Shown: positions 1 through 18,052 of the stretch, piece after piece
Numbering within the stretch: the stretch's first letter is position 1
Layout: the number at the start of each line of letters is the position of its first letter
Assembly (NCBI GenBank): GCA_963675595.2
Contig: CAXXLZ010000002.1
Coordinates: 1,664,001 to 1,728,000 of the forward strand
DNA: 64,000 nucleotides
Direction of reading: 5' to 3'
Origin: Thermodesulfobacteriota bacterium
Lineage (GTDB): Bacteria > Desulfobacterota > Desulfarculia > JACQYL01
Program-made: the position numbers and the translations under genes
Notes under the pieces: model-generated
The model's database searches: none
Seen by the model: only the letters and a program-made list of their open reading frames with translations
Told to the model about the DNA's origin: nothing

Positions 1-66
1 GAAGGATGCCGAGTCTGTGAGCATTGCGATTTGATGGTTCCGAGATGAGATCGCTTGCGATGTCTC

Positions 67-492
67 CTACTGGACACCAAGCACCCTGCCAACGTCCTCC
101 TGCTTTATAGGACCTTGTACATCCGTTAGATATGGGTTGTCCGGTTTGCCAAGGACAAAGCAAGGTACGTAATCGGGCAAACCGTTAAGAGCCGCAAAAA
201 GGGGAATATAGTCGTCAGACACAACGAACCATACTCCGCGGGGATAGACTAAAAGTTTTTGAAATATTTTTTGCTTGCCTTTCTCGAAGCTGTCCTTGAT
301 TGCAGCTTTTCCGGTCGGATGTAAGTCAGGACGATAGTCCATGTCGAAGGGCACAATCAGGGCGGTTGGAACAGCGGCAAAATAGATAGGCAGATTGCCC
401 TGCATGGCTTGTTCCATTAAACTTAGCAAAATTTCGTCCCTCTTCGGTGTTAATTCGGGCAACGTCTTGATTTCATGCTTTCTCACATACAT
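67..492 (-). CDS. Hypothetical protein, 141 aa; weak ParB/sulfiredoxin-like pattern
   Basis: ORF with purine-rich RBS (GGGAGAAG) downstream of the rebuilt UDG gene; LLVY...FVVSDD..PLFAAL..L...VPCFV loosely resembles the ParB/Srx core. Confidence 0.6.
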   Translation of the reverse strand: MYVRKHEIKTLPELTPKRDEILLSLMEQAMQGNLPIYFAAVPTALIVPFDMDYRPDLHPTGKAAIKDSFEKGKQKIFQKLLVYPRGVWFVVSDDYIPLFAALNGLPDYVPCFVLGKPDNPYLTDVQGPIKQEDVGRVLGVQ

Positions 493-920
493 TAATCTTC
501 TCCCTAAGCCGCCAAATTGAAAGGTTACCGATAAGCCATATAGAGCCTATCTCAAATCTTGCTCTTGAAGCCAATTGATTATGCTGATAATAGTATGTTC
601 CCCGACCGAGCAATGAACCCAAATTGCATAACGGGCTTCCCCAGTCGTTCTTAAGTCTTGTTCGGATAGGCCAAAATCCTTACAAAACGTTTCGATATGT
701 AAAAGGCCTTTTTTTTCCAATTTTCTAAGTTTATTGAATTGAAACCATTCTGGATTTGCAATGGGGTGAATATTGACTACTTCGTTATCCAGTTTCCATC
801 CTTTCTTGGTCTTTTGGACTCCCTTACTAGCAGCTCCCAGTTTAATGAGATGTTCCGTTACTTTTCTAACGACTATGTCGCGGAATGTGTCAATGAAAAT
901 GAGACACCTGTTTTCAGAAA

Positions 921-2404: not shown

Positions 2405-3258
2405 GCTCCATCTCCTACCCGCCCTACACTAATTTATCAACGGGTAGGTGTCTCACTCTCATTGGCACAGAGGGTCGTATGAATCCATTTTGCTGTCCAT
2501 AGCCGGAACAGGCATATTTTTATTTTTTATAGAAGGCTCTCCGGTAGGTTTTGAAATGTCATAGCCGGTTACAGTGGATACTTTGTTTTTTGTACCAGGA
2601 TTGCCACCGATAATAGATTGAAGTGACGACTGGATAGATTCGATGATTTCGCCTTGATTCACCTTAAAATAAGCTCCAGTTGGATTTGGGCTTACAACCA
2701 TAGGAATACCATTCCAATTAATGATACGGCCTGCGTCTTTGCCTACGCGAATGCTTTTACCAGTCAACTCATTGATTGTTGGTTCCCCACAGGCAATGAT
2801 TACCTTTGGTGATTTGAACTTAATTTGCTGATAAAGAAAGCCTTTACAATTGTTTGTCTCTTCACTCGTGCTTTTACGGTTTTCTTTTGCAGCACACTTT
2901 ACAAGATTTGAAAAATAGACTCTATTAAAATCAAGGTCAAGCTTCTCAAGAAAGTATCCATAATAATTTTTTTTTACTCGTTCTTCATACTCAGCATCAG
3001 TTAGTTCAAGGCTTTCCCCCGCTGCTTGCCCAGGCCGCTCACCTATCACAAATATGTATTGATCAGGTCTGCTGACAGTTCCAAACCTACGCGTAAGGAT
3101 GATGTCATCAACATAATTCTTACATTTGGAGCATCCTGCAACTTCATGTCTAATTTGATCCATGGTAAGCACATTGGGTTTGTTCATGTGAACAGACTCC
3201 TTACTGTTGAGATTCTAAAATAGGTGTCTCCAAAGGGATCGAGTTGAAATAGTAACTA

Positions 3259-4269
3259 TCAGCGCTCCCTCATTCGTTGCGGGATTGCAGTCTCACTATC
3301 GTATAGCATTCGAGCTCCGGATAGATCGGCCAAAACCAGCTCGATCAATTCCGTGGGTTCCATTACCACTGCCTGAGGCCCCAAGCTTAGGACCCACTGC
3401 TTGATCTCCTCAAGACCGGCCACCTGGAAGGTCAAGTCGAGACGCCCGTCGGGCAGTTTCTCCGCTTTCTGGCTTTCATGCCAAATCTTCTCGCCGATGT
3501 ACCGGGCCCATTCGGCGGATATCCTGATCCGGACCGTGTAAAGGTCTCCCTGCATCACTTTGAAGCTGTGCTTCATGTAATCCTCCAGACTGAAGTCCGG
3601 AGGAATTTCAAAGTGTTCCTCGGTCAAGCGCAACATTCGGATTCGGTCGAGCACGAAGGTTCGGACCTCCTCTCGTAGATGACAATGCCCGATCAGGTAC
3701 AGGGTTCCATCGAAAAACCAGACTTTGTAGGGATCGACTTTTCTTAGGGCTTCCGTTTCACTGGTCAGCGACTTGTAGGCGATCTCCAAACGCAGCGACT
3801 CCAGGGCGGCCCGATTTACCTGGCTGAGAATCTCGCGAAACCTGCCGTATTCCTTGAAGGGTTTGATTCCCACTTGGAAGGTGGATTGGATGGTGTTCAA
3901 ATAGTTGAGTGCTTGGGGCGGCAGGGTGACTCGCACCTTCTTGAAGAGCGACTCCAAGGCTTCATAGAAAGGCGTCCCTCGGAATACTCGCACCAGGTCC
4001 GAGTACAGATGAAGGGACATCAGTTCGGTCACGGTAAAGGGTTGGGGTACCTTGAATTTGTAGGTATCGACGAAAAACCATCGATTGGAACCCTCAAATT
4101 TTTCATAATATAAAGGAAATCCCGCAGCCTGCAGCGCTTCGATATCCCGGTAGGCGGTGCGCAGGGATATCTCCTCCTGCTCGGCGATCTCGGCGATGGT
4201 CAAACCGTTCTTATCCGCTTCGATCGCCCGTAGAATTCTCCATTGTCTGGCCAGCTGGTCACCGCGCAT
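3259..4269 (-). CDS. HTH-WYL-WCX transcriptional regulator (WYL-B)
   Basis: N-terminal wHTH (SLRTAYRDIEALQAAGFP), RKVDPY...LYLIGHCHLREEVRTFVLDRI, C-terminal WVLSLGPQAVVMEP. Confidence 0.92.
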   Translation of the reverse strand: MRGDQLARQWRILRAIEADKNGLTIAEIAEQEEISLRTAYRDIEALQAAGFPLYYEKFEGSNRWFFVDTYKFKVPQPFTVTELMSLHLYSDLVRVFRGTPFYEALESLFKKVRVTLPPQALNYLNTIQSTFQVGIKPFKEYGRFREILSQVNRAALESLRLEIAYKSLTSETEALRKVDPYKVWFFDGTLYLIGHCHLREEVRTFVLDRIRMLRLTEEHFEIPPDFSLEDYMKHSFKVMQGDLYTVRIRISAEWARYIGEKIWHESQKAEKLPDGRLDLTFQVAGLEEIKQWVLSLGPQAVVMEPTELIELVLADLSGARMLYDSETAIPQRMRER

Positions 4270-4360
4270 CCGGACTTACCTATGCTGAAGTGAGAGGGGA
4301 ATCCTGTTCATGAGTCCTTTTATAGGTAGCAGAACCGCGTTTTGGGATCAACTTCGCAGA

Positions 4361-5350
4361 TTACTGCGCCCGTCGAGAACGTCTGTCGGAAAACCGATCG
4401 TAATGTCCCTTCCCGGAGTTGCCTGAACTCTCCTTTTTGAAAACCGAAAGGTGCAGAACTTTTTCATTGAAGGCCAAGGCGGCGCCGGTTAGGAAATCAG
4501 ATTCAAGCCTGAAATCGTGTCCCAAGGCTAGGGAGTTTCGGACTTCGGTGTCGGCGGTGCCAACGGATTCCATGAACGCTCTCGCCTTTTCGGCAGTGGC
4601 CTTGGAAGGGGACTCCTGCTCGAACCAGTCAATGGCGTCCAGAGCGTAACTGCGGATCAGCTTTTTGAAAAAGCCGGCAAACGTGTGCTTGAATCCGAAA
4701 CACTCGGCTCCCAGGATTTTGCCGTTGACGCCGAAGACGGCTCCCACCTGCGCGTCCGTCAAGCGGAATGCTCGTTCATATTCGGAAAGACGAGGTTCCT
4801 CCTTTTGATAGATGTCCGCCATGGCTCCGGTGGCGGACTCTGTGTGCAAACGTTCTCCTTTGGCGGATATCTGCTCCCATAAGGTGTTTTGATCGGACCG
4901 AAATCCTTGATCACGTCTCAGGCTTGTACGAACAGCTTGCTGATGTGCCCGCTTAAGGCTCGGGGGCATCATTTGTCCGCCGGAACGAAATCGCTCGGAT
5001 CGATAGCCCCATCGTCCCTGCTCTACGCAACTGACCGGGATCACGAGCTCGCAAGAGCCGTCTACCAGGAACGTCGAGTTGACGATTCGGTTCTGTTTGG
5101 CTCCATGAAGTTCTTCGCCCTCTACGATCAGCACTTGTTGCTTTCCCCGATTGATCAGTTTCAATTCCGGAACACTGCCCGAGGAGCTCACCTCGGTTAC
5201 CTCGATCTGCTCTCGTTCCAGAGCCTCGTCGAGGGTCAGGTACTCCGGTTCTCCGTTGTCGGGAGCCAGCAAGGGAAAGAGGGTCATGTTGAGATATGCC
5301 TGTTTTCTTCCCACCTTGACGTACGCCAGGTATTCACGAATCGGTTCCAT
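4361..5350 (-). CDS. ARPP-1/DUF6569-family protein
   Basis: YLTLDEAL...EVSSSGSVPELKLIN...GEELHGAKQNRIVN...IPVSCVEQGRW pattern; RBS GGAGG. Confidence 0.75.
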   Translation of the reverse strand: MEPIREYLAYVKVGRKQAYLNMTLFPLLAPDNGEPEYLTLDEALEREQIEVTEVSSSGSVPELKLINRGKQQVLIVEGEELHGAKQNRIVNSTFLVDGSCELVIPVSCVEQGRWGYRSERFRSGGQMMPPSLKRAHQQAVRTSLRRDQGFRSDQNTLWEQISAKGERLHTESATGAMADIYQKEEPRLSEYERAFRLTDAQVGAVFGVNGKILGAECFGFKHTFAGFFKKLIRSYALDAIDWFEQESPSKATAEKARAFMESVGTADTEVRNSLALGHDFRLESDFLTGAALAFNEKVLHLSVFKKESSGNSGKGHYDRFSDRRSRRAQ

Positions 5351-5373
5351 GGGTCACCTCCATTTTTTTCATA

Positions 5374-5408
5374 ATGGGTAACCCACGGGGTTGTCAGATC
5401 AGGACAAA
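5374..5408 (-). promoter_or_regulatory. Palindromic operator TTGTC-N7-GACAA (5391-5407) plus putative -10 for the ARPP-1/WYL-B unit
   Basis: Minus strand reads TTTGTC CTGATCT GACAAC CCCGTGGGT TACCCA ... GGAGG ... ATG. Confidence 0.55.
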
Positions 5409-5528
5409 AAGGAGAGCGAATTTTCTTGGGGTGATGATTTCGCGACGCGCCTTTCAGGTGATCGGCTGACACGGCGACCACGTGAAGTATCCCTCAAATT
5501 ATTTTCAGCTCCGGTAGAGAAGAATTCT

Positions 5529-5564
5529 ATCATTCCGAAATCTGGAATGATGTCGTGCTAATCT
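5529..5564 (+). promoter_or_regulatory. Palindromic operator 1 plus -10 box upstream of the GGCT gene
   Basis: ATCATTCC GAAATCT GGAATGAT; TAATCT lies 9 nt after GGAATG. Confidence 0.7.
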
Positions 5565-5628
5565 TTCCGAATGATGAGAAGCTGGTGTTGAGGCATGAAT
5601 TGGCAGTTAGCTGTTGGAGGGAGGCCGG

Positions 5629-6506
5629 ATGGACAATCTATATTTTGGATATGGTTCCAATCTGAACTTCGATGATCTGAAAAGGTGGTGTGCTCGGAAA
5701 AAAACGGCCCCATCGAGGGTGTGGTAGGGAAGGCCTTCTTGCCGGATTTTGGTCCTGTATACAATTATCTCTCCCGGACCCGTGGCGGTGGTGTTCTAAA
5801 TATCCGCGAGGAGATCGGGCAAGTTGTGCCGGGTGTGCTTTTCGAGATTCGGCCCGATGGGCGGGCAACGCTCGACCGAAAAGAAGGATACCCGAGTGTT
5901 TATACCCGGATCGAAATCACTTGTCTCCTGCAAGACGGCGATACGGCGGACGCCTTCACCTATATGGTCCGAGACATTCACTCCCGGGGGGGATTTGTAA
6001 AACCGTCGCCCGATTATGTCCAAATTGTAAGAAGGGGATTGAATGCTCACGGCGTCATCGAACACCTCCACAAGACGGCGGAAAAGGGAGCGAATACGCC
6101 TTACCTGATCGACCGGATATTCTGCTATGGGACTCTGATGTCCGGTGAATCCAGAGGAGCACTCCTGGAGACCTTCGGAAAGCCTGAAAAACGCCTCAAC
6201 GGAGTGACGCCCGGGCGTCTCTACGATCTGGGCGGATTCCCGGCAATGTCCATGAGTTCATCTTCTGAAGAAATCGTTCACGGAAAGCTCGTTCAAGTGA
6301 AGCGCATCGGGGACTTGCTCGCTTTCCTCGATGGAATCGAGGGCTTCCGCGGATATGGGTGTGAATCATCTCTGTTTGAGCGTCGGATCGTGCGGGTCCG
6401 AACCGAAGCTGGTGACGAATTCGCATGGGTGTATGTCATGGTCGACCCCGGAGACGCTCCAATGATCGTCGATGGGAAGTGGCGTGGAAGGTCCATCATC
6501 CTTTGA
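5629..6506 (+). pseudogene. Tandem gamma-glutamylcyclotransferase (GGCT/AIG2-like) protein, frameshifted near an A7 run
   Basis: RBS GGAGGGAGG plus ATG at 5629 encodes MDNLYFGYGSNL (GGCT start motif) but stops after 32 aa; the rest (5685-6506, LDRKEGYP, second domain IFCYGTL...LDGIEG) is in the -1 frame; A7 at 5698-5704. Confidence 0.8.
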
Positions 6507-6558
6507 ACCCAATCGTCGGCATAAGTTCCAGCGGTGCGGGTCCAGCCAAGGATAACGC

Positions 6559-7566
6559 CTACTCAGGATCACCATATAGGACGGACATATCCCTTATCGA
6601 CGAACGGATTTCAGACCTGAGATCTTCCGGTTCCAGGAGTTCGGCCTGGGAACCGAAACCTAATACCCAGGAAAGCACTTCGAGTCGGCTCGTGGCGGTG
6701 AATTCCAGAATGACGCCGCCGTCGGGTTGGGGAACCATTTGTTGTCCCTCGCTCCAGTTACGCTCCTTGATGTAAACGGCCGCACTGGGACGAAAGGCCA
6801 CCCGGACCTGAAAAGGCTCCCCATCGATGAGTCCGAAACGAATCGACTGCTCGTCCAGGAAGTCCTTCTTCTCGTATTTGTGTTCCGTCGTTTCCGCGGA
6901 AACCAACCGGTGGAGGGCCAGAGTCATTTTGTGCGGGTCGTCGGGAACGGCGTCTTCCCATAAATACCAGGCCAGGACGTAGACGCATTCACCGGAGAGC
7001 ATCAAACGAAAAGGGGCCACGTAGTGGGTGGCCGGTTGTTCCTGGCCCGGCTTGGCATAACGGATTTTGCAGACCTGATGATCCTTCATGGCGGCGAGGA
7101 GTCGCTGGAAGATGTCCTGCTTCCCGGAGTAATCGATGGCTCCTTTGGGCCGGGCCCATGCGCATTTTTCCGGAAGCTCGTCCAATACGGCATCATCGGG
7201 AAGCAGCGCAGTCGCCTTTCTGATCGTGTCGCTGATCCCGTTTCGCAGGGAATCGGGAAGAAGATTCCAAACCAAGTCCCGGCAAAGCAGCAGATGATGA
7301 ATTTGTTCAGGGTCCAACGTCACGTTGAACGCTCCACGGGGTGGCCGAGCTCGGTAATACTTTTCCCGCCCTTGCGTCGAAGTTTCGATCTTAACGTTGC
7401 GGATCAGTTGGAGCTGTTCCACATATCGAATCACGGTCTGTTTCGAACATCTAAGGTCGCCGGCCAGCTTGCTCAATGAATACTTCCGCCTGCTGAACAG
7501 GAGGAGACAAAAAAGACCTAAGGCCTTCATGGCTGGTGTTGAATAGGGGTCCTTTTTCTCTGGCAT
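6559..7566 (-). CDS. HTH-WYL-WCX transcriptional regulator (WYL-A)
   Basis: HTH (LSKLAGDLRCSKQTVIRY), VAPFRL..CVYVLAW..TLALHRL, C-terminal WVLGFGSQAELLEPEDLR. Confidence 0.88.
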   Translation of the reverse strand: MPEKKDPYSTPAMKALGLFCLLLFSRRKYSLSKLAGDLRCSKQTVIRYVEQLQLIRNVKIETSTQGREKYYRARPPRGAFNVTLDPEQIHHLLLCRDLVWNLLPDSLRNGISDTIRKATALLPDDAVLDELPEKCAWARPKGAIDYSGKQDIFQRLLAAMKDHQVCKIRYAKPGQEQPATHYVAPFRLMLSGECVYVLAWYLWEDAVPDDPHKMTLALHRLVSAETTEHKYEKKDFLDEQSIRFGLIDGEPFQVRVAFRPSAAVYIKERNWSEGQQMVPQPDGGVILEFTATSRLEVLSWVLGFGSQAELLEPEDLRSEIRSSIRDMSVLYGDPE

Positions 7567-7718
7567 GGGGCTTTATCCTCCGAAAGTCTGAGATTCTCGT
7601 ATCTGTAGGGTGCCGGGACTATTATTCTGTGGTATCCTGCCTTATTTCAACACGCGTCATACCAAAAGAATAGAACGTTCGGTTCGTCCGCCGGGACCCC
7701 AAACGTTCCAGCTCACAC

Positions 7719-10001
7719 CTACCCACGTGCGGGATTCGACGGAAGCTCTTGGCGCCGCAGATCGGGCGCCTGCGAAGCGGGCCGGAAGCCGACCTCCGTT
7801 GATCCCTTTTGGTATCGTTTGATTCGGGATTCGCTTTCCAGCGCTTCGACCAAGATCGAATGGCTCTCCGGTTTATGGAAACGGAACCGGTCCCTGACCA
7901 CGGCGAAGTCTCCCGGAGCCAGGTCTCGAATCGTTCGTATCCGGGCGATGTCTTCATCGCTGATGAGACCAACCACCAGCGGCTCCAGCATTCGTCGATA
8001 AAACAGCAGATTACCGGACGGCTCCAAGAAATCGAAGCCGACCTTGTGGGTGAATCGGCGAACGGCGGCCTCGTCCACATCCAACAAACGGTTGGTGGTG
8101 CAGATCAGAATTCCTCGGTATGCTTCCATGCTGGAAAGCAGTTCATTGGTGAAGCTCACTTCCCAGGATCGTTGGGCCCGTGACCGGGGAAACAACAGGC
8201 TGTCCGCTTCGTCGATGAGCAGAACCGCCTCGTCGTCTTCCGCACGCCTGAAAGCCTCCCTGATTCGTCTTTCAGTCATGCCCACATAAGGGTCCAGAAT
8301 ATCGCCGGCCCTGCGGACAACCAGGTCGCGTTCCAGCACTCGGGCCAGATGGTGCGCCAGGGCTGTTTTCCCGGTTCCGGGAGGACCATGGAACAGCATT
8401 CGCAGCCCACCCATCACCTCATCGCTCTGATTCAAGCTGCAGCAGGTGAAGGCTCGGGCGTCTTCCATGAGCCGCTCGAAGTCCTGATCCGTATGGAGTC
8501 CTTCCAAAGAGTATTCGGTCTCCGACTTGCGATGGGTCTTGGAGGAAGCATCGGTCGGACCCATGGCCATATAGGCATCAAGGGCCAGGCGAACCGCTTT
8601 TCCGAAATCCTGAGGATTTTCGTCACAGGCGAGCTTGGCCTTCTTGACCGACATGTCGATGACCCCCGCACTCACTTCGAACCTTGAGGCCAATTCCATC
8701 ACATCCGCTTCCTCGATCAAGTCCGAACAATCGTTTCGGGTGAGGATCGAACGCCAAAGACCTTCCCTCTGGGTTCGGTTGAATGGACGGAATCGGATGC
8801 TGAAGGCCATGCGACGTTTGATCGTATCGGGAAGGGATTCGACGTTGTTCACGATCCAGATCATGCGAATGCCCGGACGTTCCAGGAGCTGGTTCAACCT
8901 GCCTTTTTTGTTTTCACGACCCGAGAGGAACCAGGGAACCTCCGTTCCCAGGATTTCGTCCGCTTCGTCCACTACGATGATTGACCCTTCCTTGCTTTGG
9001 TTCGTGAAATTAAGACAGGTGAGAACAGCGTTGAGCTTTGCTGAGGATTCCTTGCCTTTTTCGGCGTAAATCTCATATGCGGGGGTCGGAAGTTCGCTTG
9101 CCAGCCCCCTGGCATAGGAGGTCTTCCCCGTCCCCGAGGGGCCGTAAAGGAGAACATGCGTTGGGGAGTCGGTCCGCCGGGAAAGCAAGCCCATGACATG
9201 AGCCGTTATCTCCTGTGGAACCATATGGTTGGAGAGAGGAATGTCACTCGGAGGAAGCGGTCGGTACCCTTTGCGCCCGATCTCGTGTTGACCGCACTTC
9301 TGCAACAGAATCAAGTAGTCCTGTTCCATCTTGATCCAGTATCCGTTCGACCATATCTCAACGATTTCAAGTTGAGAAAGCCTTGAAAAGACCATGGTGT
9401 CAAGGTGCGATGTCGATACGTTTAAAGCATGGGCAAGGTACTTACGCCCACTGAACCGGAGGCATTCCAGGTGTCTCTCGAAATAGTCCTCAGCCGCCTC
9501 CCAGGCTTGGCACATGAACAGAATCCTGCAAAGTTCGGTTTCCTCGGGTGTCAGGTCGAAGAGCTTTCCGAATTCATGGAACCCGCCTTCAAGGCTGGAC
9601 CCGCTAGACGAGCACAGAAGACCGTCCTTCTCCAGGAGTTTCTCCTGAAGGAGCTTCAAAAGCTTCAATTTGGAGCGCCTGGAACCATGTGTTGAGACCT
9701 TCACCAACAGATCGAAGTCAAGCTCGTCAAAATAGGACATATCGTAGGATTCTCTCGTCAGAACTTCCAGTTCTTTCTGATTCAGGACGCGATACTTGAC
9801 CATCCATTCCTTTATCTCTTCCGGGCTCGGTTCGAGAAGCTTGAAAGCAAATTCCAGCGTCTCCCGGTCCAATCGTCCCGATCCGTTCAAGATTCGCAGC
9901 AGATAGAGAATCGCCTTCTTTCGAAGGAAGCATTCATCCGAGCCGAGGGTTTCCACTCCTTCGTGGAGAACGGTTCTTCTTTTCCTGCGGGTAGGCGCCA
10001 T
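7719..10001 (-). CDS. Double-ring AAA+ ATPase with long N-terminal domain
   Basis: Two Walker A/B sets: GPSGTGKT/IIVVDEAD and GPPGTGKT/LLIDEAD; DEAAVRRF arginine-finger region. Confidence 0.9.
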   Translation of the reverse strand: MAPTRRKRRTVLHEGVETLGSDECFLRKKAILYLLRILNGSGRLDRETLEFAFKLLEPSPEEIKEWMVKYRVLNQKELEVLTRESYDMSYFDELDFDLLVKVSTHGSRRSKLKLLKLLQEKLLEKDGLLCSSSGSSLEGGFHEFGKLFDLTPEETELCRILFMCQAWEAAEDYFERHLECLRFSGRKYLAHALNVSTSHLDTMVFSRLSQLEIVEIWSNGYWIKMEQDYLILLQKCGQHEIGRKGYRPLPPSDIPLSNHMVPQEITAHVMGLLSRRTDSPTHVLLYGPSGTGKTSYARGLASELPTPAYEIYAEKGKESSAKLNAVLTCLNFTNQSKEGSIIVVDEADEILGTEVPWFLSGRENKKGRLNQLLERPGIRMIWIVNNVESLPDTIKRRMAFSIRFRPFNRTQREGLWRSILTRNDCSDLIEEADVMELASRFEVSAGVIDMSVKKAKLACDENPQDFGKAVRLALDAYMAMGPTDASSKTHRKSETEYSLEGLHTDQDFERLMEDARAFTCCSLNQSDEVMGGLRMLFHGPPGTGKTALAHHLARVLERDLVVRRAGDILDPYVGMTERRIREAFRRAEDDEAVLLIDEADSLLFPRSRAQRSWEVSFTNELLSSMEAYRGILICTTNRLLDVDEAAVRRFTHKVGFDFLEPSGNLLFYRRMLEPLVVGLISDEDIARIRTIRDLAPGDFAVVRDRFRFHKPESHSILVEALESESRIKRYQKGSTEVGFRPASQAPDLRRQELPSNPARG

Positions 10002-10130
10002 GGGTGGTTCTCCTTATTGGTGTCTCTTTGTGCGTGATTAGCCGGCCTTGGCGCGCTCCGGGCGCTGTGGCTTCATCAGGGCGGAGGCTGGAAATGGAGC
10101 GCAAGGCCTGAAATCCTCATCGCCATGAAC

Positions 10131-10165
10131 AGGATAAAACAGGATCGTTCCAGATTACGGAACGA
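10131..10165 (-). promoter_or_regulatory. Palindromic operator 2 plus -10 box upstream of the AAA-WYL-A unit
   Basis: Minus strand TCGTTCC GTAATCT GGAACG ATCCTGTTT TATCCT. Confidence 0.7.
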
Positions 10166-10392
10166 AAAATATTTTATCTCTGTGGAAGTTGGGGACGCGT
10201 TTGAGGGAGGCTACGCGTTTACTGCATGGCGGAACTCTCGGGTGGGTTGAAGGTCGGTTCTCCTCGATAGCCTGGGAGAAGTCTCGTCATGCGTTGAACA
10301 GGCTGAAAAGGGGTTTCGATCTCGGAAAAACTTTCATTGCCGTTTCCTTTCGGCTCAAGAAAGTGATTTTCGAGGACGGCGAAAAAATCTGG

Positions 10393-10428
10393 AACGTTCC
10401 GGAATCTGGAATGTTGGGGGTGTATGTT
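10393..10428 (+). promoter_or_regulatory. Palindromic operator 3 plus -10 box upstream of the small membrane gene
   Basis: AACGTTCC GGAATCT GGAATG TTGGGGGTG TATGTT; an extra half site AATCTGGAACG lies immediately upstream. Confidence 0.7.
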
Positions 10429-10510
10429 CGTGCCGTATCGAAAAGGCGTTGAAGCTGAGTATCCGTAATCTCGGTCGGTCGGCAATGATTGGACAAAAGG
10501 AAAAGGAGGG

Positions 10511-10858
10511 TTGGAAATGAATGATTTCAGCATCAAGAAGTTGGATACGGACCTGGACGCTACGGGCGCCCTGGGGCATGTGATTCTGTGGTTCATCATC
10601 ATGGTGGTCACGTTGGGGTTCGGAGCGTTCCTGTTTCCCTACGCCTTCACCAAGACGGTCATCAACAAGACCTACCTGGTGGACGCCCAGGGTCGTCGGG
10701 TCGGCCGGTTGAAATGCGACCTGGATTTGGGGAGTCAGATCGGCCACGCCATCATCTGGTTCATCCTTTCGATCATCACTTTTGGATTCGCGTACTTGAT
10801 CTACTTCTACAAGGTTTTCCAGTACGCCATCAAAAAAACTACGGTGGAACCCGTGTAA
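10511..10858 (+). CDS. Small membrane protein with internal duplication (DUF6693-like)
   Basis: RBS AAGGAGG; two repeats GHxIxWFIxxxxTxGF. Confidence 0.7.
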   Translation: MEMNDFSIKKLDTDLDATGALGHVILWFIIMVVTLGFGAFLFPYAFTKTVINKTYLVDAQGRRVGRLKCDLDLGSQIGHAIIWFILSIITFGFAYLIYFYKVFQYAIKKTTVEPV

Positions 10859-11134
10859 CGGAAACGGTTTGGCTCGACCGAGAGCCTGCTGCTTCAACGC
10901 CTTCGGTTTGGAATGCAGTATCGGGCTCGGGGCTCCGAGCCTTGCAAGCTACTGAGAGAAATTTTCTTCCCAACACGATTGTCGTCGCCTCATTCGGGTT
11001 GATATCACATATTCCAAAACAGAATATTTAGGGGGGATATCGGTAGGTATGAGGGTGCTGGAGGCGATGGATAGGATTATCAGTGAAGAACAGAAAGATT
11101 CATCCACAGCATTTGACGTCAACGGAAAATTCCT

Positions 11135-11854
11135 ATGCAAAGAGACATTGAAATAAGAAAAGATTTCATCCAGACTTTCCGAATCAAACGTGTCGGCCTC
11201 GCACGAATCTGGAAAGACTGGGAGAACAGCGCAATACTGCTGATTTCCGGCTATCGGATTTCGGATACCGACGATCACGAGAACAGAATCAGGACCGAGA
11301 AAGAAAAGAACCTGGAGAAGACTCTCGAGCTCATCAAGGCGGCGGACCGTCCCGTTTACCGCACCGTACTGACTGAGGGGATCTGGACCGGCCATCACAC
11401 CGGAAGACGTTATGTTGAGGACATGCTTCTCATTAGAGCCGGGGTCAAGGAAGTCGATATGCTTTTTGAAGACTGCATGAACTGGATGGCCGTATATGAG
11501 CAAAAAGCCGCAGCCTTTAAATATCCCGGCGACGAACGCGCCCATATCGTGTTCAATAATGGGTCTCTCAAACCGGCAGGCATCCGGAATCCCGGTAAGG
11601 TTACGGAAGATTTCGCCGAGCTCAGAAACACCGACAAGTTTGTTCACGCTCATTTGTACGGAGGTCGCGGCTTGATGGGCGCGCGTCTTTGGTCGGCAAT
11701 CATCAAGAACCTGGGGCCGGAATCCGACAGGGTCATTGAAGCCCATATCCACAAACCAATGAACGTAATCTGCTATAAGCTTTGGAAGGCGGCAGGACAC
11801 CAAATCAATCGTGAGAGTGCCAAGTATCTATTGAAAGGTGAATTGCGGGAATAG
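11135..11854 (+). CDS. Hypothetical protein, 239 aa
   Basis: Long ORF with protein-like composition; no confident domain. Confidence 0.6.
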   Translation: MQRDIEIRKDFIQTFRIKRVGLARIWKDWENSAILLISGYRISDTDDHENRIRTEKEKNLEKTLELIKAADRPVYRTVLTEGIWTGHHTGRRYVEDMLLIRAGVKEVDMLFEDCMNWMAVYEQKAAAFKYPGDERAHIVFNNGSLKPAGIRNPGKVTEDFAELRNTDKFVHAHLYGGRGLMGARLWSAIIKNLGPESDRVIEAHIHKPMNVICYKLWKAAGHQINRESAKYLLKGELRE

Positions 11855-12127
11855 TAAGGTTTCATCCGGGTACCATAATACTGAGCGGGAGTGGTTGCAA
11901 ATAAACAACATCCCGAAATAATACTCATAGATATAATGGGCGTATATCATAGTTATATGGATGTATGTCAAATATTGACTTATGGTTGTGTTCCATCGCA
12001 CTCAATAAACAAATTTGTACACCCCCTTGAAACGGGGTATGGAAACCCTTTACCATCTGTGATCTCGTTTGGTATGAAGATGTTCGTACTATGTTCTAAA
12101 TGCTTTTGAAACCCGGAGCAATAATAG

Positions 12128-13420
12128 ATGACAATTACATGGGGTATTCTGGGTCCCGAATTCTTGCCGAATGCGCGCCGTACGAGAACCCTTGGACTGG
12201 GTGCGTCAGTGCGTTCATTTAATGATCTTGCCGTTCCGGGTCTGGGTGGTGTGTGGTATGGCAAGCAATTGCTGCTGGCGTCACTCGGTGTCGCCGTAGC
12301 GGAGGAGGCACGCAGCCGGGGGGCAAAAGTACAGAATATTGAAGTGGCCAACGCGATTGAAGCGTTGGCCTGTTGGCTGGCCTTCAAGAGCAACGGCTGG
12401 AGTCGCGATGATCGTTTGCGGGGGAATACCAAGTTGCACGGCAAAGACGATTTCAGCTTCCGGCGTGTGCGGCAGCGAAACTTCTACATCACGCAACCTA
12501 TGCGAATGGCGACTGTCCAGGCATTACCGGCCCTTGGCTTTGTCGAATCCGACAGTGCGCGCTTCAACGCATTTCGTTGTTCGGTTCCAGGAAAGGCCTT
12601 TATCGAACAAGCTACTGAGGACTATCGTCCGTATAACAGGTCAGTTATTGATCATCTAACGTCTTGGGTGCAGATGAAAGTTGATCGTGTCGATACGGAT
12701 GCACTTCAAAATGTCTTGTCTCCACTGAATCGACTTCCCGGAAAAGCAATACCGTTGCTTCGCGAAAGAATAAAGCAAGGTGGGAATGAAAGGCATGAAG
12801 ACAAGGAACGCCGATGCGATTCACTAAACTGGGTCGAGGCACTCCGAGTAAAAAGCCTGGATAGGCAGACGTGGGAGCACCGACCAAGAGAAGTTTCGGA
12901 GAAGCATTGGCATGACCTCCAGGCGGGGGCTTTGTTCTTTGAAACACGCGAATCCGCTATTGCGGTACTCGATGCAGCAGAAGCCCACATCGGAAACCAG
13001 ACAATCAGTCAGTCTTGTTGCTTGGCGCATATTCCGGAAGTACTGAACTCTTCGATTGAAAAACTGAAATCAACGGCAAATGAGTATTTGATGTCTAAAC
13101 ACACGGATGAAGAAGCCAACAAATTCTGTCGCGAGTGCGTAGATGACGACCCATCCACTATCTTGCGGACTTTGGTGAAACGAGACGGTCATGTGTTGCG
13201 TTTGGTGGGTGAAGACGTAAAGCCGGGGCCGGCATTTCGCGGTCCGATAATTCAGACCCGATCCGAGGAAGGCGAGGATCAAGACACGCCGCAAGCAATG
13301 GAAATTCCAGTGCCAGAGAGCATTTCCTACCGTGTGCGCAATCTATATCTCTTGAATCTCGATATGCACGGTAAACTGGATGGATGGCTGAAACCATATC
13401 CGAACGGGGGTGAAGCGTGA
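12128..13420 (+). CDS. Hypothetical protein, DUF6361-like N-terminus (Azaca-like component)
   Basis: RTLGLGASVRSFNDLAVPG resembles the LGxG..R..F.D...PG start of DUF6361; GTGA overlap with the next gene. Confidence 0.55.
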   Translation: MTITWGILGPEFLPNARRTRTLGLGASVRSFNDLAVPGLGGVWYGKQLLLASLGVAVAEEARSRGAKVQNIEVANAIEALACWLAFKSNGWSRDDRLRGNTKLHGKDDFSFRRVRQRNFYITQPMRMATVQALPALGFVESDSARFNAFRCSVPGKAFIEQATEDYRPYNRSVIDHLTSWVQMKVDRVDTDALQNVLSPLNRLPGKAIPLLRERIKQGGNERHEDKERRCDSLNWVEALRVKSLDRQTWEHRPREVSEKHWHDLQAGALFFETRESAIAVLDAAEAHIGNQTISQSCCLAHIPEVLNSSIEKLKSTANEYLMSKHTDEEANKFCRECVDDDPSTILRTLVKRDGHVLRLVGEDVKPGPAFRGPIIQTRSEEGEDQDTPQAMEIPVPESISYRVRNLYLLNLDMHGKLDGWLKPYPNGGEA

Positions 13421-15435
13421 GTCGCAGTAGCGAAACTTTGAGACCGCCATCTTTGGCTCAGCATTTCGATGCACCGGATGATTTCACCGGACATTTCGGC
13501 TGGCTGTGCGGCTACTCAGCGGATGCACCATTCCTTGATGAAGCCACTGAACGTTTTTCCCGGCTTACCCGTTCCCAACGCGGCCACGAGGGCCGCATTT
13601 TTCTCGCCGTGGTGCTTGATCCGCATAACCCTCCCGTTTCTCTAACGGATGTGCCAGGGGTGGCGCATTTACGGATGATCAAGGATGCTAATAAGCCATT
13701 CCGGCTGCTGCATGCAAAGGTCGCGTTGCTGGGGTTCCGCCATCAGGAAAACCCCGCAAACTGGCAATTACGCTTGCTGGTGTCTACCGGCAATTGGACA
13801 CGGCAGACGCTCGAAGAGAGTATAGATATGGGGTGGCGTATTGATATCACCAGTGAATCGCTCAGCAACCCGGACGCAGATATCGATCAAGCCTGCACGG
13901 ACATCAAGGCTGCCTGGGATCTATTGAAATGGATTCAGCGGTTCTTCGACTTCCAGCTGCTCAATGCGGCTGGCAATGGTTATATCAATGAAACGAAAAA
14001 ATCATTGCAACAGGTCAACCAATGGATTGATGCATGTTCGAAAAAGGCACAAAGTCGACCGAGGTTCTTAGACAATCGGAGCAAGTCCCTGCTGTCTCAA
14101 CTGCCCGAGAAAGTAAAGGCCTGTTGCGAGGTGAAGCGCAATTACCTAGCCATGGGGTCAGGGTTTTACGAAGAGTCGGCCGATCAGGGAACAGCTCCTA
14201 AATTACCCGTCGCGATCGTTAGATCGCTGCAAAGTGAGGGCTTGCTGACCAAGAATCCGGAAGTGGACCTTTATGTCAATCCTATAGCCTGCCAAGCGAT
14301 AGCAACATCTGTAAACTCATTGCAGTCATTTGGTATCACGATCCGACCTGCGTTTATACCGCTAGTTGTGTTTGGAGAAGGAGCACAGCGTAGCTTGCAC
14401 GCCAAGTTCCTGTTCAGTGCCAACCATCGTGACAGCTCCAATATCTGTGCAAGTGCCTGGATTTATATGGGTTCCGCCAACTTGACCAAGCCGGGTTTTG
14501 ACAATCCAATGAGCGCTGATGCGGGCAACCTCGAGGCGGGGGTCGTGTTTGCTCCGAGCACATTGTATTGGAGTAAAGACAAAACAACTCAAAGTGTTCT
14601 GGTGGTGACGAACCTGCTTCCTATTCAGTGGGACGAGGAGATTGGAGACACGAGCCATTTGTCTGCAGGCTCGGGTATTGAACAACGGGATGAAATCTAT
14701 CTTGCGCCCCCTATTGCCTTTCTCACATGGCACGACAGTGTACCGGAATTACGAACAGATGAACCCGCTGACTATGTCGATGTGCTCGATTCAGCAGGAG
14801 TCGTCTGTTCAAGAAGAGAAAGCGGATTTCAGTGGTGCGAAGCTCAACCCCGGCAAGTTCGCATTCGCTGGCAAGCAAACGATCAGACACTCGAATCCAT
14901 GATACCCATAGTCGATCAATATGGGCGCATAGCCGCCACTGAGCTACCCTTTATTGATATCGATCAGGCATGGTGGCAACTCGCGGATTTTCCAATGCCC
15001 CCGAATGAAGATGACGGAGACGGCGGAAGCGATGAAATTGAAGGCAAGCACAAAGTGCAAGGGCGTTCAGCAGAGATAACCAACTATCCGATACGGCAGA
15101 TGATGGAATTGATTGAAAACATCGCCGCCAAACAAACCAAGATCGACAAATTGGATTTGGATTTCTGGTGCAACCGCCTCGAGCAAACCTTAGGACAAAC
15201 AGCCGAAAGCATTCCCGTGTGATATTTTCGCGACGAGCTTAAGGTGAACCCGTTGAGTCCGCTGCGACACGAGCCATTTCGTCCGTCGTTTGCGGAAAAC
15301 AGTGATTCAGAGCCGGGGAGATTGTACGATAAGACCTTGGATCGGATCGAAGAGATGTGGAAGGTTGATGAATTAGAACGCTTGGGGACTTGCAATGAAT
15401 CGAAAATTCAAGGGCTGGAAAATAGTTGCAGATGA
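13417..15435 (+). CDS. Phospholipase D-fold nuclease with two HxK motifs; in-frame TGA at 15220-15222
   Basis: LLHAKV...VSTGNWT and SLHAKF...MGSANLT; the same frame stays open from 15223 to 15435. Confidence 0.75.
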
Positions 15436-18052
15436 ACTTCGCGCGCTTGCAGATGATCGAGTCATGGAACTCAACGACGGGCAAGTAGCGAGCCTGCATG
15501 CACTTGCCGATCGACTAACCAAGAACGGCGTGATCATTGCGGACGAAGTCGGCATGGGAAAGACTCGGATTGCTACAGCGGTCGCACGTTGTGTGATTGC
15601 GGCTGGAGGGCGAGTTGCGATACTGGCGCCACCGGGGTTGGGCTATCAATGGGGCGACGAATTACGGAACGCCGAAGTCGACGCACCACCAATCTTGCGC
15701 AGCCTCTGGCAATATTTCCAGGCATGGGAGACCGAGGAGAAGTGTGTCCCTTGGTTTCAAGAGTCAGCTCTGGTAGTCTCGCATTCTTTTGCGAACTGGC
15801 GGCTTGGAGAGAAAACTGATCCTTGGCGTTGGGCTTTGCTACCGGAAATATACTATAGATGGCGCAAGCAAACGAACGGACGTTGGCCGCGGGACTACTG
15901 CGGAAACAAAATACTTGGCGACGAGAGGGTTCGACGAGCTGCCGAAAGCATTGTTGGCGCAATAAGCGCCAGCCCAGAAGTGCACCCTGTGCGAAGGTTT
16001 ATTCGCGAATTGGCCGAAAACACGCCGTGGCCAAGTGCGCTCACTGCTGTCGAATATGCGAGTAACGCACAACTGCGGCCCTGGCTGGAACGTGCGGTGG
16101 GACTTGGGATGGGATTGTTTGATTTGGTTATTGTTGATGAAGCACACAAAAGCCGCGGCCAAGGCAGTGGCTTGAATCGATTGCTAAAAAAGGTGGTTTT
16201 GGAATCTACCTTTGCACGCTGCTTAGCAATGACGGCCACTCCCGTGGAGCTTGATGTGGAACAGTGGACGCAGATGTTAGAGCGTATCCAAGTCGAGGAA
16301 TTATCGAAAGAAGCGGCGACCCAGGCAATTAGAGATTACGCTCAAAAAGTAGATAGGGTGAGGCAATGCCCGAGCGACAAAGAGGTGCGTGAGAAATACA
16401 AGCGATCAGCTAAGACTTTCGAACAAGCACTAATTCCTTATATCCTGCGACGTGATAAACGAGAAGAGCCAGCGGTCAAGAAGTTTCAACAAATATCTGG
16501 CGAGGGCTATCACGCCTACCGAGATGAAAAGGAAATACTGATTGATACTGCGCGACTGATTCCCGAATGGAAACATGCGGTGTGCGCTGCGGAAGCCTTG
16601 TCTTTTGTCACACGTCAATCCGACAATACGGCGGCCAAGCGGCTTCGTCTGACCATAGGCAATGGTCACGGAATCGCAGCCCTGATTGATCAATTGCAAA
16701 GAGATGATTTAGATGACCATAGACAAATGAAATCCGATTGCCTCCCTGAGATTACTACACAGAATAACATCGAATCAGAACTTTCCGATGACAAGCGACT
16801 GCTACGTGCAGACTGGTGGCAGAATGTCATGATCAAACCATTCATGAACGATGGATCGACGTTATTCAATCACCCTGCTATTCTGAAAGCAGTCGAAGAG
16901 ATTGAGAAAGCCTGCCGGCGAGGGGAGAAGGTACTGGTGTTCGGGCGCTTTACTCGACCGCTACGCGCGTTGGTGCAATTGCTCAATGCTCGGGAAATGC
17001 TGCGCTGCTTGGAAAACAACCGACTTTGGCCACAATCCAAAGTGCATGAAAACGAAGAATGGGATGCTGTTTTGGCTGCTCGTCGGCAGCTGCAAATACA
17101 AGGAGAATTGGATAGGAATCTTCTGGATCAAGCTCTTGCTAAGCAGTACCAAGTGCTTGAGAATCAGCGCCGTAATATTCGGGGAAAGCTAATTAGACAC
17201 ATCGAAGAAGGGCTCAACAACAACAAGTCGGAGAAGCGTGTGCGAGCACTATTTGATGCTTTCAGGAGGTCGGCTACGGAGGTTCCAAAACAGCTTCAAG
17301 ACAACGACGATCATGCATTGGCTGTAGTGTCTCGGGCGATGCACGAATTGATAGGATCAAGCATTGAGAATGCAGCGTCCTCCGACTTCGCGCAGGCTTT
17401 TACTGAGCTGGTGGTGGCAGCAAGCGATCGCGATGAGGGGGATGCAGACGGCGATGGTCAGCTAGATGAAGATGAAGCCTCTGATCTTTGGGCCGATCTC
17501 AGAAAAAGGTTAGATGAGGAATATAACCGCCCAGAAGGAAGATATGCGCGACTCATGTATGGAGCGACAAAACCCGCAACTCGGCGCTTCCTGCAACTTT
17601 CCTTTAATCGAAAGCAAGGGCACCCGAAGGTACTAGTGGCACAATCACTAGTGGGTCGTGAAGGGCTTAATCTTCACAAGGCATGCCGAACTGTTGTGCT
17701 GTTGCATCCCGAGTGGAATCCAGGTGTTGTTGAACAGCAGATTGGTAGAGTCGACAGGATCGGCAGTCTTTGGGAGGAGAAATTGAACCAGGTGATCGCC
17801 GATAAGCAAACGACTAGCGATCTCCCAAGAATTGAAATCCGCCCGGTCGTTTTTGGCGGTACGTATGATGAGAAAAACTGGCAGGTGCTTCATCACCGAT
17901 GGGATGATTTGCGTGCGCAACTTCACGGAATCGTCCTTACTTCACGCATCGCTGAAAAATATTCGAATGCAGATGAATTGGTCATTGAAATAAATGAAGC
18001 TGCTCCAAACTTTTCACCATTGACCCAGGTATCCTTTTCAGAAGGGGTTTGA
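15395..18052 (+). CDS. SNF2-family (SF2) helicase
   Basis: ADEVGMGKT, VDEAH, MTATP, VGREGLNL, WNPGVVEQQIGRVDRIG. Confidence 0.9.
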   Translation: MNRKFKGWKIVADELRALADDRVMELNDGQVASLHALADRLTKNGVIIADEVGMGKTRIATAVARCVIAAGGRVAILAPPGLGYQWGDELRNAEVDAPPILRSLWQYFQAWETEEKCVPWFQESALVVSHSFANWRLGEKTDPWRWALLPEIYYRWRKQTNGRWPRDYCGNKILGDERVRRAAESIVGAISASPEVHPVRRFIRELAENTPWPSALTAVEYASNAQLRPWLERAVGLGMGLFDLVIVDEAHKSRGQGSGLNRLLKKVVLESTFARCLAMTATPVELDVEQWTQMLERIQVEELSKEAATQAIRDYAQKVDRVRQCPSDKEVREKYKRSAKTFEQALIPYILRRDKREEPAVKKFQQISGEGYHAYRDEKEILIDTARLIPEWKHAVCAAEALSFVTRQSDNTAAKRLRLTIGNGHGIAALIDQLQRDDLDDHRQMKSDCLPEITTQNNIESELSDDKRLLRADWWQNVMIKPFMNDGSTLFNHPAILKAVEEIEKACRRGEKVLVFGRFTRPLRALVQLLNAREMLRCLENNRLWPQSKVHENEEWDAVLAARRQLQIQGELDRNLLDQALAKQYQVLENQRRNIRGKLIRHIEEGLNNNKSEKRVRALFDAFRRSATEVPKQLQDNDDHALAVVSRAMHELIGSSIENAASSDFAQAFTELVVAASDRDEGDADGDGQLDEDEASDLWADLRKRLDEEYNRPEGRYARLMYGATKPATRRFLQLSFNRKQGHPKVLVAQSLVGREGLNLHKACRTVVLLHPEWNPGVVEQQIGRVDRIGSLWEEKLNQVIADKQTTSDLPRIEIRPVVFGGTYDEKNWQVLHHRWDDLRAQLHGIVLTSRIAEKYSNADELVIEINEAAPNFSPLTQVSFSEGV

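Follow-up and report, generated by a model that had tools for sequence, protein, structure and literature searches.

We describe a 19-bp palindrome that stands a fixed 9 nt upstream of -10-like hexamers in a 64,000-nt stretch of a Thermodesulfobacteriota genome (GenBank assembly GCA_963675595.2, contig CAXXLZ010000002.1, positions 1,664,001 to 1,728,000 of the forward strand; hereafter, the window). The palindrome occurs beside the gene for a regulator, WYL-A, with winged helix-turn-helix (wHTH), WYL, and WCX domains, and it adjoins WYL-A homologues in two phyla, which bears out the link to this gene made in an earlier prediction from the same DNA (the original prediction). We consider it reasonably probable that the palindrome is the operator of the WYL-A family and that the regulator acts from it as an activator of the DriD/SiwR/PafBC type, seated over the -35 position. 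The site, its spacing, its association with the gene family, the fold of the regulator, and the missing -35 element are the direct evidence for this reading.

Three palindromes stand 9 nt before -10-like hexamers in the window

Sites were sought with the degenerate 19-mer CRTTCCGNAATCTGGAAYG, whose consensus is CRTTCC-N7-GGAAYG, frequently with AT flanks. The window contains three exact matches:

Site 1, 5531 to 5549, + strand: arms CATTCC/GGAATG, spacer GAAATCT; exact match, identical in the paralogous copy
Site 2, 10146 to 10164, - strand: arms CGTTCC/GGAACG, spacer GTAATCT; exact match, facing the AAA ATPase gene
Site 3, 10395 to 10413, + strand: arms CGTTCC/GGAATG, spacer GGAATCT; exact match, facing the DUF6693 gene

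All three copies named in the original prediction are thus recovered, at positions that differ by about 2 nt from those given there. When up to three mismatches are tolerated, the only additional window match is site 3 read in reverse; 100 shuffles of the window at the same tolerance gave a mean of 0.42 matches and never reached four. At site 1, the AT flanks lengthen the arms to 8 bp (inverted repeat 5529-5536/5544-5551).

Direct reading of the sequence places a TAnnnT hexamer 9 nt past each of the three sites, as had been claimed:

-10-like hexamer TAATCT, 5559 to 5564, + strand: 9 nt past site 1, preceded by TGc (extended -10 form), 64 nt from the ATG at 5629
-10-like hexamer TATCCT, 10131 to 10136, - strand: 9 nt past site 2
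-10-like hexamer TATGTT, 10423 to 10428, + strand: 9 nt past site 3

The distance from hexamer to start codon is 64, 129, and 88 nt, respectively, and each site points at the gene that the original prediction had assigned to it:

GGCT/AIG2-like gene, 5629 to 6506, + strand: Pfam GGACT/AIG2_2; target of site 1, broken in the window copy
AAA ATPase gene, 7719 to 10001, - strand: two-domain protein of 760 aa, ATG at 10001, Pfam AAA; target of site 2
DUF6693 gene, 10517 to 10858, + strand: small membrane-type protein, ATG at 10517 behind AAGGAGG, Pfam DUF6693 (E 1e-40); target of site 3

With the hexamer at -12 to -7, the palindrome extends from about -40 to -22, its proximal arm from about -27 to -22. 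A consensus scan called no sigma-70-type -35/-10 pair at the three window sites, and the bases at the -35 position are the conserved palindrome sequence CGNAAT, unlike TTGACA. The proposal that the site occupies the place of a -35 element therefore stands. We also considered a -35 element within the palindrome, or a GGAAC -35 element of the extracytoplasmic function (ECF) type, and rejected both on spacing, since the distance from the arms to the -10 hexamer is 20-22 nt or 10 nt.

The motif marks four promoters in the source genome

The source genome (6.79 Mb) contains six exact matches to the pattern, two with one mismatch, and one with two mismatches, compared with none in the whole genome for a reversed control pattern. 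The six exact matches are the three window sites and their counterparts in a second copy of the surrounding island. Seven sites in total carry the hexamer at +9; these represent four distinct promoters, all in or beside the two island copies. The fourth promoter is intergenic, lies beside copy 2, and has one mismatch followed by 9 nt and TATCCT, and the two other near-matches fall inside long open frames and lack TAnnnT. Since the flanks of the four promoters are otherwise unrelated to one another, the palindrome is not a repeat element, in agreement with the original expectation that it would not prove a common genomic repeat. TAnnnT has a background of 0.0052 per position in this genome, so its presence at exactly +9 in four of four distinct promoters is not due to chance. 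All four have weak -10 hexamers (3-4 of 6 positions) without a -35 element, and TG precedes the hexamer in one only.

Broader patterns were also tried. The arms alone give no genome-wide signal, with 69 occurrences of RTTCC-N7-GGAAY in the source genome versus 53-106 for other spacer lengths, and CGTTCC-N7-GGAACG with at most one mismatch is not enriched in two Nitrospirales genomes (14 versus 42 and 36 versus 25 for the reversed control). A composite pattern searched across the phylum was only weakly enriched outside the source genome (11 versus 8 control matches, counted by hand). Its strict form is present in 8 of 401 phylum genomes, of which five were inspected (genomes are coded G000 for the source genome, G002, and so on, and gene calls in relatives are simple open reading frame [ORF] calls). 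G136, G371, and G243 each carry a site next to a strong WYL-A homologue (E 1e-81 to 1e-93); G191 has a weak homologue only (E 2.4e-15) and G264 has none, and the composite matches of these two look like chance. Meaningful sites are only those with the conserved spacer or an adjoining regulator.

Spacing and polarity are conserved in related loci

To avoid circularity, the spacing between palindrome and hexamer was tested on loci collected by protein searches only, with sites defined by TTCC-N7-GGAA alone. The second set is an independent replicate of new loci from the phylum of a Nitrospirales metagenome-assembled genome (MAG):

Set 1: 75 loci, 45 palindromes, 90 orientations; TAnnnT at offset 9 in 16 versus 0.79 expected, at offset 1 in 8, at the rest in 0-4
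Set 2: 29 loci, 20 palindromes, 40 orientations; TAnnnT at offset 9 in 15 versus 0.23 expected, at the others in 0-1 each

Offset 9 is the peak in both sets, and in G136 all five distinct full sites (5/5) have a -10-like hexamer at +9. We examined the smaller offset-1 peak of set 1 as a possible second -10 register and discarded it, since it is explained by the AT extension of the palindrome and the conserved CATG of the extended -10 element (TGn).

For polarity, sites were oriented by the asymmetry of their spacer only (G after TTCC, T before GGAA) and counted by hand. TAnnnT lies at +9 on the T-GGAA side in 13 of 20 sites in set 1 and 5 of 7 in set 2, versus 0 of 20 and 0 of 7 on the opposite side. 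The asymmetric spacer that the original prediction described as conserved therefore predicts the promoter side. In most relatives, a start codon with a ribosome-binding site follows 24-57 nt past the hexamer. In three Nitrospirota loci (L167, L168, and L173, at about 1457-1500), the site is symmetric and is flanked on either side by a -10-like hexamer at 9 nt; the hexamer on the regulator side stands 6-7 nt before the regulator ATG, which suggests a leaderless, self-controlled regulator mRNA.

WYL-A resembles activators of the WYL family

The proposed binder of the palindrome is encoded between the GGCT-like and AAA ATPase genes:

WYL-A, 6559 to 7566, - strand: wHTH-WYL-WCX regulator, proposed palindrome binder, by Pfam, AlphaFold, and co-location of homologues

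Pfam recognizes the WYL (PF13280, E 6.5e-7) and WCX (PF25583, E 1.6e-19) domains and calls no N-terminal helix-turn-helix (HTH) in WYL-A. An AlphaFold model built on a 25-sequence alignment (predicted local distance difference test score [pLDDT] 78.9) has wHTH, WYL, and WCX domains, as class A WYL transcription factors do, the wHTH comprising residues 11-74 (helices 11-25, 31-37, and 42-53; beta wing 59-74). Y170, H219, and R220 are invariant or near-invariant in the WYL-A alignment. A homodimer model, symmetric about an interface of linker helices and WCX domains, scored 0.74 versus 0.00 for the best control, with partner pLDDT of at least 78 and runs agreeing in at least 71% of contacts. Among solved homo-pairs, 20 of 30 attain the 0.74 mark, as does 1 of 23 single chains, and because like dimers have already been solved, the pass may reflect that likeness.

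In Foldseek comparisons, WYL-A matches DriD (E 8e-16) and PafBC (3e-13) more strongly than CapW (3e-6) and BrxR (8e-6). A sequence profile search of the PDB returned PafC (best, E 1.8e-6) and DriD only, with no match to BrxR or CapW at E<0.01. By both searches, WYL-A is nearer to DriD and PafBC, which activate, than to BrxR and CapW, which repress; this agrees with the original distinction between its control logic and that of BrxR/CapW.

The palindrome adjoins WYL-A homologues and a varied set of target genes

A search for related loci with the single WYL-A protein yielded three loci only. With a profile, WYL-A matches were found in 34 of 401 sampled genomes of the phylum Thermodesulfobacteriota at E≤1e-40 (about 8%) and in 34 of 135 genomes from the phylum of the Nitrospirales MAG at E≤1e-60 (about a quarter). 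Ten fetched Thermodesulfobacteriota loci have a TTCC-N7-GGAA palindrome 24-50 nt before the regulator start codon, and in these the -10 side of the site faces the divergent gene, away from the regulator.

The target genes that adjoin WYL-A homologues vary by locus. Within about 7 kb of 23 homologues, tblastn detected the AAA ATPase at 10, ARPP-1 at 3, and DUF2779 at 3, making the AAA ATPase the most frequent neighbor. The AAA ATPase gene is directly preceded by a site in G000, G002, G043, and G090, whereas in G371 the gap is about 280 nt. Sites also directly precede DUF2779 in G043, in G090 (where it comes second in the operon), and in copy 2 of G000 (where it follows GGCT), and a site stands 25-26 nt before the ARPP-1 gene in G248 and G159. 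Elsewhere a site precedes a cpYpsA SLOG protein (G136) or a short ORF, an M20 peptidase, and a ribonucleotide reductase (G152). In G002, a relative with 68% identity, a site with two mismatches has TATGTT at the 9-nt distance, stands 35 nt before the AAA ATPase gene, and shares one short contig with the WYL-A orthologue. The more distant G032 (34% identity) has two sites, each followed by 9 nt and TAnnnT, before a seven-gene operon (L045, 5537-19931) that encodes two ankyrin-repeat proteins, an SNF2 helicase, two GmrSD-like proteins, a leucine-rich repeat protein, and a WYL protein. These sites lie between a NikA/relaxase pair and the operon, so the module rides on a mobilizable element there.

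Upstream of the WYL gene in L089 (G079) and L090 (G177), the inner arm bases, judged by eye, have diverged and TTCC/GGAA is absent, yet both loci retain the outer CG, a conserved TAGCATG-type spacer, and a -10-like hexamer at 9 nt. This pattern looks like co-evolution of operator and regulator.

WYL-A probably has a promoter of its own

The WYL-A gene lies 152 nt behind the AAA ATPase gene, and the original prediction had WYL-A activating its own operon from site 2. The gap between the two genes contains another candidate promoter:

Sigma-70-like promoter, 7621 to 7650, - strand: TTGAAA, 18 nt, AATAAT; 10 of 12 positions; between the AAA ATPase and WYL-A genes

This promoter, 7650-7621(-), is just upstream of WYL-A and has no change between the two island copies. 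WYL-A is probably made constitutively from it, judging from the promoter sequence, so that feedback through the AAA ATPase promoter would be partial at most, and positive feedback in the window becomes doubtful. It is also disfavored by the position of the site in most Thermodesulfobacteriota relatives, where it lies in the regulator leader and points away. Upstream of this sigma-70-like promoter, positions 7673-7708 contain GAACGTTC-type short palindromes and a TGGAACG half-site.

Comparison with known WYL regulators

The original prediction presented the palindrome as a promoter class hidden in the WYL module. A WYL site that replaces the -35 element at a fixed distance has been published for DriD (PMC13004042; 2026), PafBC (PMC8635444; 2021), and SiwR (PMC10693628; 2023); the novelty here thus lies in the subfamily, the operator, and the lineage.

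DriD of Caulobacter crescentus is the best structural match to WYL-A, and like WYL-A it is a wHTH-WYL-WCX homodimer whose site has an N7 core and whose promoters lack a -35 element. Cryo-electron microscopy and promoter alignments place the DriD palindrome over the -35 position, at a distance from the -10 element that is identical across its regulated promoters, and show that DriD recruits RNA polymerase via the beta subunit and the alpha C-terminal domain (PMC13004042). The proteins share 18-19% identity and come from different phyla, and the DriD site is CGAC-N7-GTCG (quoted in PMC12392091), whereas the arms of the WYL-A site are TTCC/GGAA. The DriD regulon comprises didA, bapE, and recA, whereas that of WYL-A centers on the AAA ATPase, DUF2779, and ARPP-1.

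SiwR of Mycobacterium smegmatis is likewise a homodimeric WYL activator with a 19-bp palindrome of 6-N7-6 arms. It is encoded divergently from its target operon, with an imperfect palindrome in an intergenic region of roughly 60 bp; the probes used in electrophoretic mobility shift assays contain TAGGAC-N7-GTCCTA, and the -26 region is required for induction (PMC10693628). SiwR differs in arm sequence, in its actinobacterial host, and in its DinB-like gene targets. By our own reading of these probes, its palindrome abuts the -10 element with the distal arm at -26, whereas the WYL-A site leaves a 9-nt gap and has its proximal arm at about -26. The -26 element of mycobacterial PafBC, at -23 to -28 in -35-less promoters (PMC8635444), coincides with the position of the proximal WYL-A arm. 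PafBC is a heterodimer of adjacent or fused paralogues with a non-palindromic element (PMC8635444, PMC11804915), whereas WYL-A is a single protein with a palindrome.

BrxR and CapW are also wHTH-WYL-WCX dimers with inverted repeats next to defense genes, and some WYL-A targets are defense-like. They match the WYL-A fold more weakly (E 3e-6 to 5e-5), and no fixed upstream spacing is described for either. BrxR represses from 11-bp repeats with a 5-bp spacer downstream of the -10 element (PMC9122601); the WYL-A site, unlike that of BrxR, is upstream of the -10 element, yet it overlaps the core promoter. DdaA of Moraxellaceae is a precedent for a WYL activator of defense genes: it activates DNA damage and anti-phage genes through the palindrome CGWCA-N5-TGWCG, about 50 bp upstream of the transcript start (PMC12392091). 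Its site, by this account, differs from that of WYL-A in not lying over the -35 position.

Activation weighed against other readings

In the mechanism that we propose, a WYL-A homodimer would bind the 19-bp palindrome ending 9 nt before the TAnnnT -10 element and, from this fixed position, would recruit RNA polymerase with the housekeeping sigma factor. Recruitment would take place when the WYL domain binds a nucleic-acid ligand (single-stranded DNA in the studied relatives), as in DriD, SiwR, and PafBC. Four promoters would be switched on, namely, those of GGCT (followed by DUF2779 in copy 2), the AAA ATPase, DUF6693, and the McrBC-like operon beside copy 2, and the AAA ATPase promoter might allow read-through into WYL-A. 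That WYL-A binds the palindrome, which way it controls transcription, and what its ligand and trigger are is all inferred; by family analogy only, the trigger may be DNA damage or phage. Four features favor activation: the spacing is fixed to the exact base, the site is polar, the -10 elements in the source genome and Nitrospirota are weak and have no -35 element, and the fold is akin to that of the activators.

Several points weigh against activation, and most of them would suit a possible but distinctly less probable alternative, in which WYL-A is a BrxR/CapW-like steric repressor at -10-only or extended -10 promoters and a ligand releases it (derepression). The site overlaps the core promoter, and a dimer over -40 to -22 is also in the position of a steric repressor. 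Extended -10 elements occur in many relatives; in several they are strong (TGnTATAAT) and could fire without an activator. Promoters with only a -10 element are common in some bacteria, such as mycobacteria, so a missing -35 element is no proof of activator dependence and is compatible with repression. In most Thermodesulfobacteriota loci, the site is in the regulator's own leader, and the symmetric two-sided layout of the three Nitrospirota loci, in which one hexamer drives the regulator, is also typical of auto-repressors. Part of the cargo is defense-like (the McrBC-like operon, the SNF2/GmrSD operon, and a patatin), and the studied WYL regulators of defense islands, BrxR and CapW, are repressors, BrxR binding inverted repeats (PMC9122601). 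The loci also share descent, so that the spacing and polarity counts overstate independence and their figures are not probabilities.

A steric block needs no fixed register, however, and the spacing is invariant to the single base across about 30 promoters in two phyla. The source-genome promoters, with -10 hexamers of 3-4 of 6 positions, no -35 element, and TG in one only, also speak against repression, as does the BrxR operator, which is downstream of the -10 element and not upstream (PMC9122601). Comparisons of fold and sequence also favor DriD and PafBC, by about 8-10 orders of E-value. We also weighed a dual switch of the MerR/LysR kind, in which the promoters, that of the regulator included, would be off without ligand and the same dimer would activate them with ligand. 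Such a switch would suit the presence of sites not only at target promoters but also in, or at, the promoter of the regulator itself, and DriD has been suggested to repress its own gene and activate others (PMC9186387). We regard it as improbable; the evidence does not separate it from plain activation, of which it is a refinement and not an exclusive rival.

A different protein might bind the palindrome. The module contains a second WYL paralogue, WYL-B, in an operon divergent from the GGCT-like gene:

Divergent operon, 2459 to 5350, - strand: ARPP-1 (4361-5350), WYL-B (3259-4269), and a uracil-DNA glycosylase (UDG)-family gene (2459-3187), by Pfam

WYL-B is 2.3 kb from WYL-A in the window, in a separate operon. 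WYL-B, or a WYL-A/WYL-B heterodimer like PafBC, could be the binder, with WYL-A a mere neighbor: both paralogues are present in both island copies, the site is slightly asymmetric, and the Pfam HTH match of WYL-B is clearer. We think this very unlikely, since none of 23 loci (0/23) has a separate WYL-B homologue within about 7 kb of the WYL-A homologue, yet the palindrome has the same asymmetry there. This absence argues against a PafBC-like heterodimer, and the WYL-A homodimer model passes its controls.

Least probable of all is that the palindromes are RNA hairpins (terminators or leader structures) and not DNA sites. In favor of hairpins, the folding energy of each site is about -10 to -11.5 kcal/mol (z -2.8 to -4.8), and site 2 was flagged on both strands by a terminator scan. 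Against them, the sites are found ahead of genes, within divergent intergenic regions, and not where genes end; conservation across phyla extends to the sequence of the arms; and a -10 element at a constant distance, with a ribosome-binding site and a start codon behind it, fits a promoter. Positions 5000-11200 have no Rfam match at E≤1. Intrinsic terminators, in which a G+C-rich hairpin and a U tract close a transcription unit, were rejected, site 2 alone being flagged and all sites being upstream of genes.

The island, its two copies, and additional repeats

The second island copy is inverted, at C2:4705694-4717513, and is 96% identical to window positions 1-880 plus 2474-11516. In the window, the island is interrupted at 881-2474 by an IS3-type element (rve integrase and HTH_Tnp_1), of which the genome has about 10 near-identical copies; the window coordinates listed for this element are 881-2474 and 22774-24367. 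Another element, of 1.3 kb at 45352-46650, is present in more than 20 copies.

The window copy of the GGCT gene has a 4-nt deletion near 5707 that shifts the frame, as determined by alignment to copy 2, so site 1 would drive a broken gene there. The window also lacks about 1.9 kb with the DUF2779 gene near 6485. Copy 2 encodes an intact 298-aa GGCT protein and a 528-aa DUF2779 protein. Between the copies, 2 of 516 positions differ in the AAA ATPase/DUF6693 intergenic region (10002-10517), compared with 2-5% in the flanking genes, which points to constraint or gene conversion; the ARPP-1/GGCT region has 7 changes in 279 nt, and the three sites have 0. As a test of constraint, the comparison of the two copies is underpowered, with too few changes (0 in the sites, 2/516, and 7/279).

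Past 11516, the two copies bear different cargo. The window cargo (11135-18052) consists of unknown 239-aa and 430-aa proteins, a PLD-like protein, and an SNF2/DrmD-like helicase. In copy 2 (L049, 1-12000), small unknown proteins are followed by the fourth promoter, the McrBC-like operon, and then a sigma-54 activator; the fourth promoter faces a 590-aa unknown protein, an AAA_5 protein, and a McrBC-component protein. NCBIfam has no family for WYL-A, WYL-B, ARPP-1, or DUF6693, and every NCBIfam match to the AAA ATPase is far below its cut-off. A literature search found no description of this operator or of the WYL-A subfamily.

Additional repeats surround the three window sites. An extra half-site abuts site 3 on its upstream side:

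Extra half-site, 10386 to 10398, + strand: 13-nt direct repeat of 10403-10415, abutting site 3 upstream

The repeat spacing is 17 nt, the half-site forms a zero-spacer palindrome with the distal arm of site 3, and it is kept in copy 2; it could seat a second dimer. Just past the -10 hexamer of site 1, positions 5561-5576 partially repeat a half-site of site 1 (as a direct repeat of 11 nt spaced 32 nt from its partner and a repeat of 8 nt spaced 24 nt) and might form an additional, weak site across the transcript start. At site 2, the spacer and -10 element together form a tandem 8-nt direct repeat at 10-nt spacing (10128-10145), so that the -10-like sequence is doubled.

Implications

For a WYL subfamily that has no name, the palindrome, the 9-nt distance, and the -10 element make up a concrete operator and promoter rule, by which regulons can be read from sequence in uncultured lineages. 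The rule would extend the design of DriD, PafBC, and SiwR past Alphaproteobacteria and Actinobacteria. The recurrent and unstudied effector set of the two-domain AAA ATPase, DUF2779, and ARPP-1 is a likely output of nucleic-acid sensing, and the two-sided sites offer a natural test of whether one symmetric dimer can serve two polymerases.

Taken together, the observations suggest a broader picture, which we offer tentatively, as one that may well not hold in full. The WYL-A family could be a widespread, undescribed activator circuit that senses stress or phage in Nitrospirota and Thermodesulfobacteriota. Its homodimer would license -35-less promoters at exactly 9 nt on one or both sides, with the asymmetry of the spacer (one base) marking the active side. 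The core output would be the Cdc48-like AAA ATPase with DUF2779 and ARPP-1, onto which variable defense cargo (McrBC-like, SNF2/GmrSD) would be wired. If true, this circuit would be an SOS-independent damage and defense response of anaerobes and nitrifiers, and it would include bidirectional activation of the DriD type.

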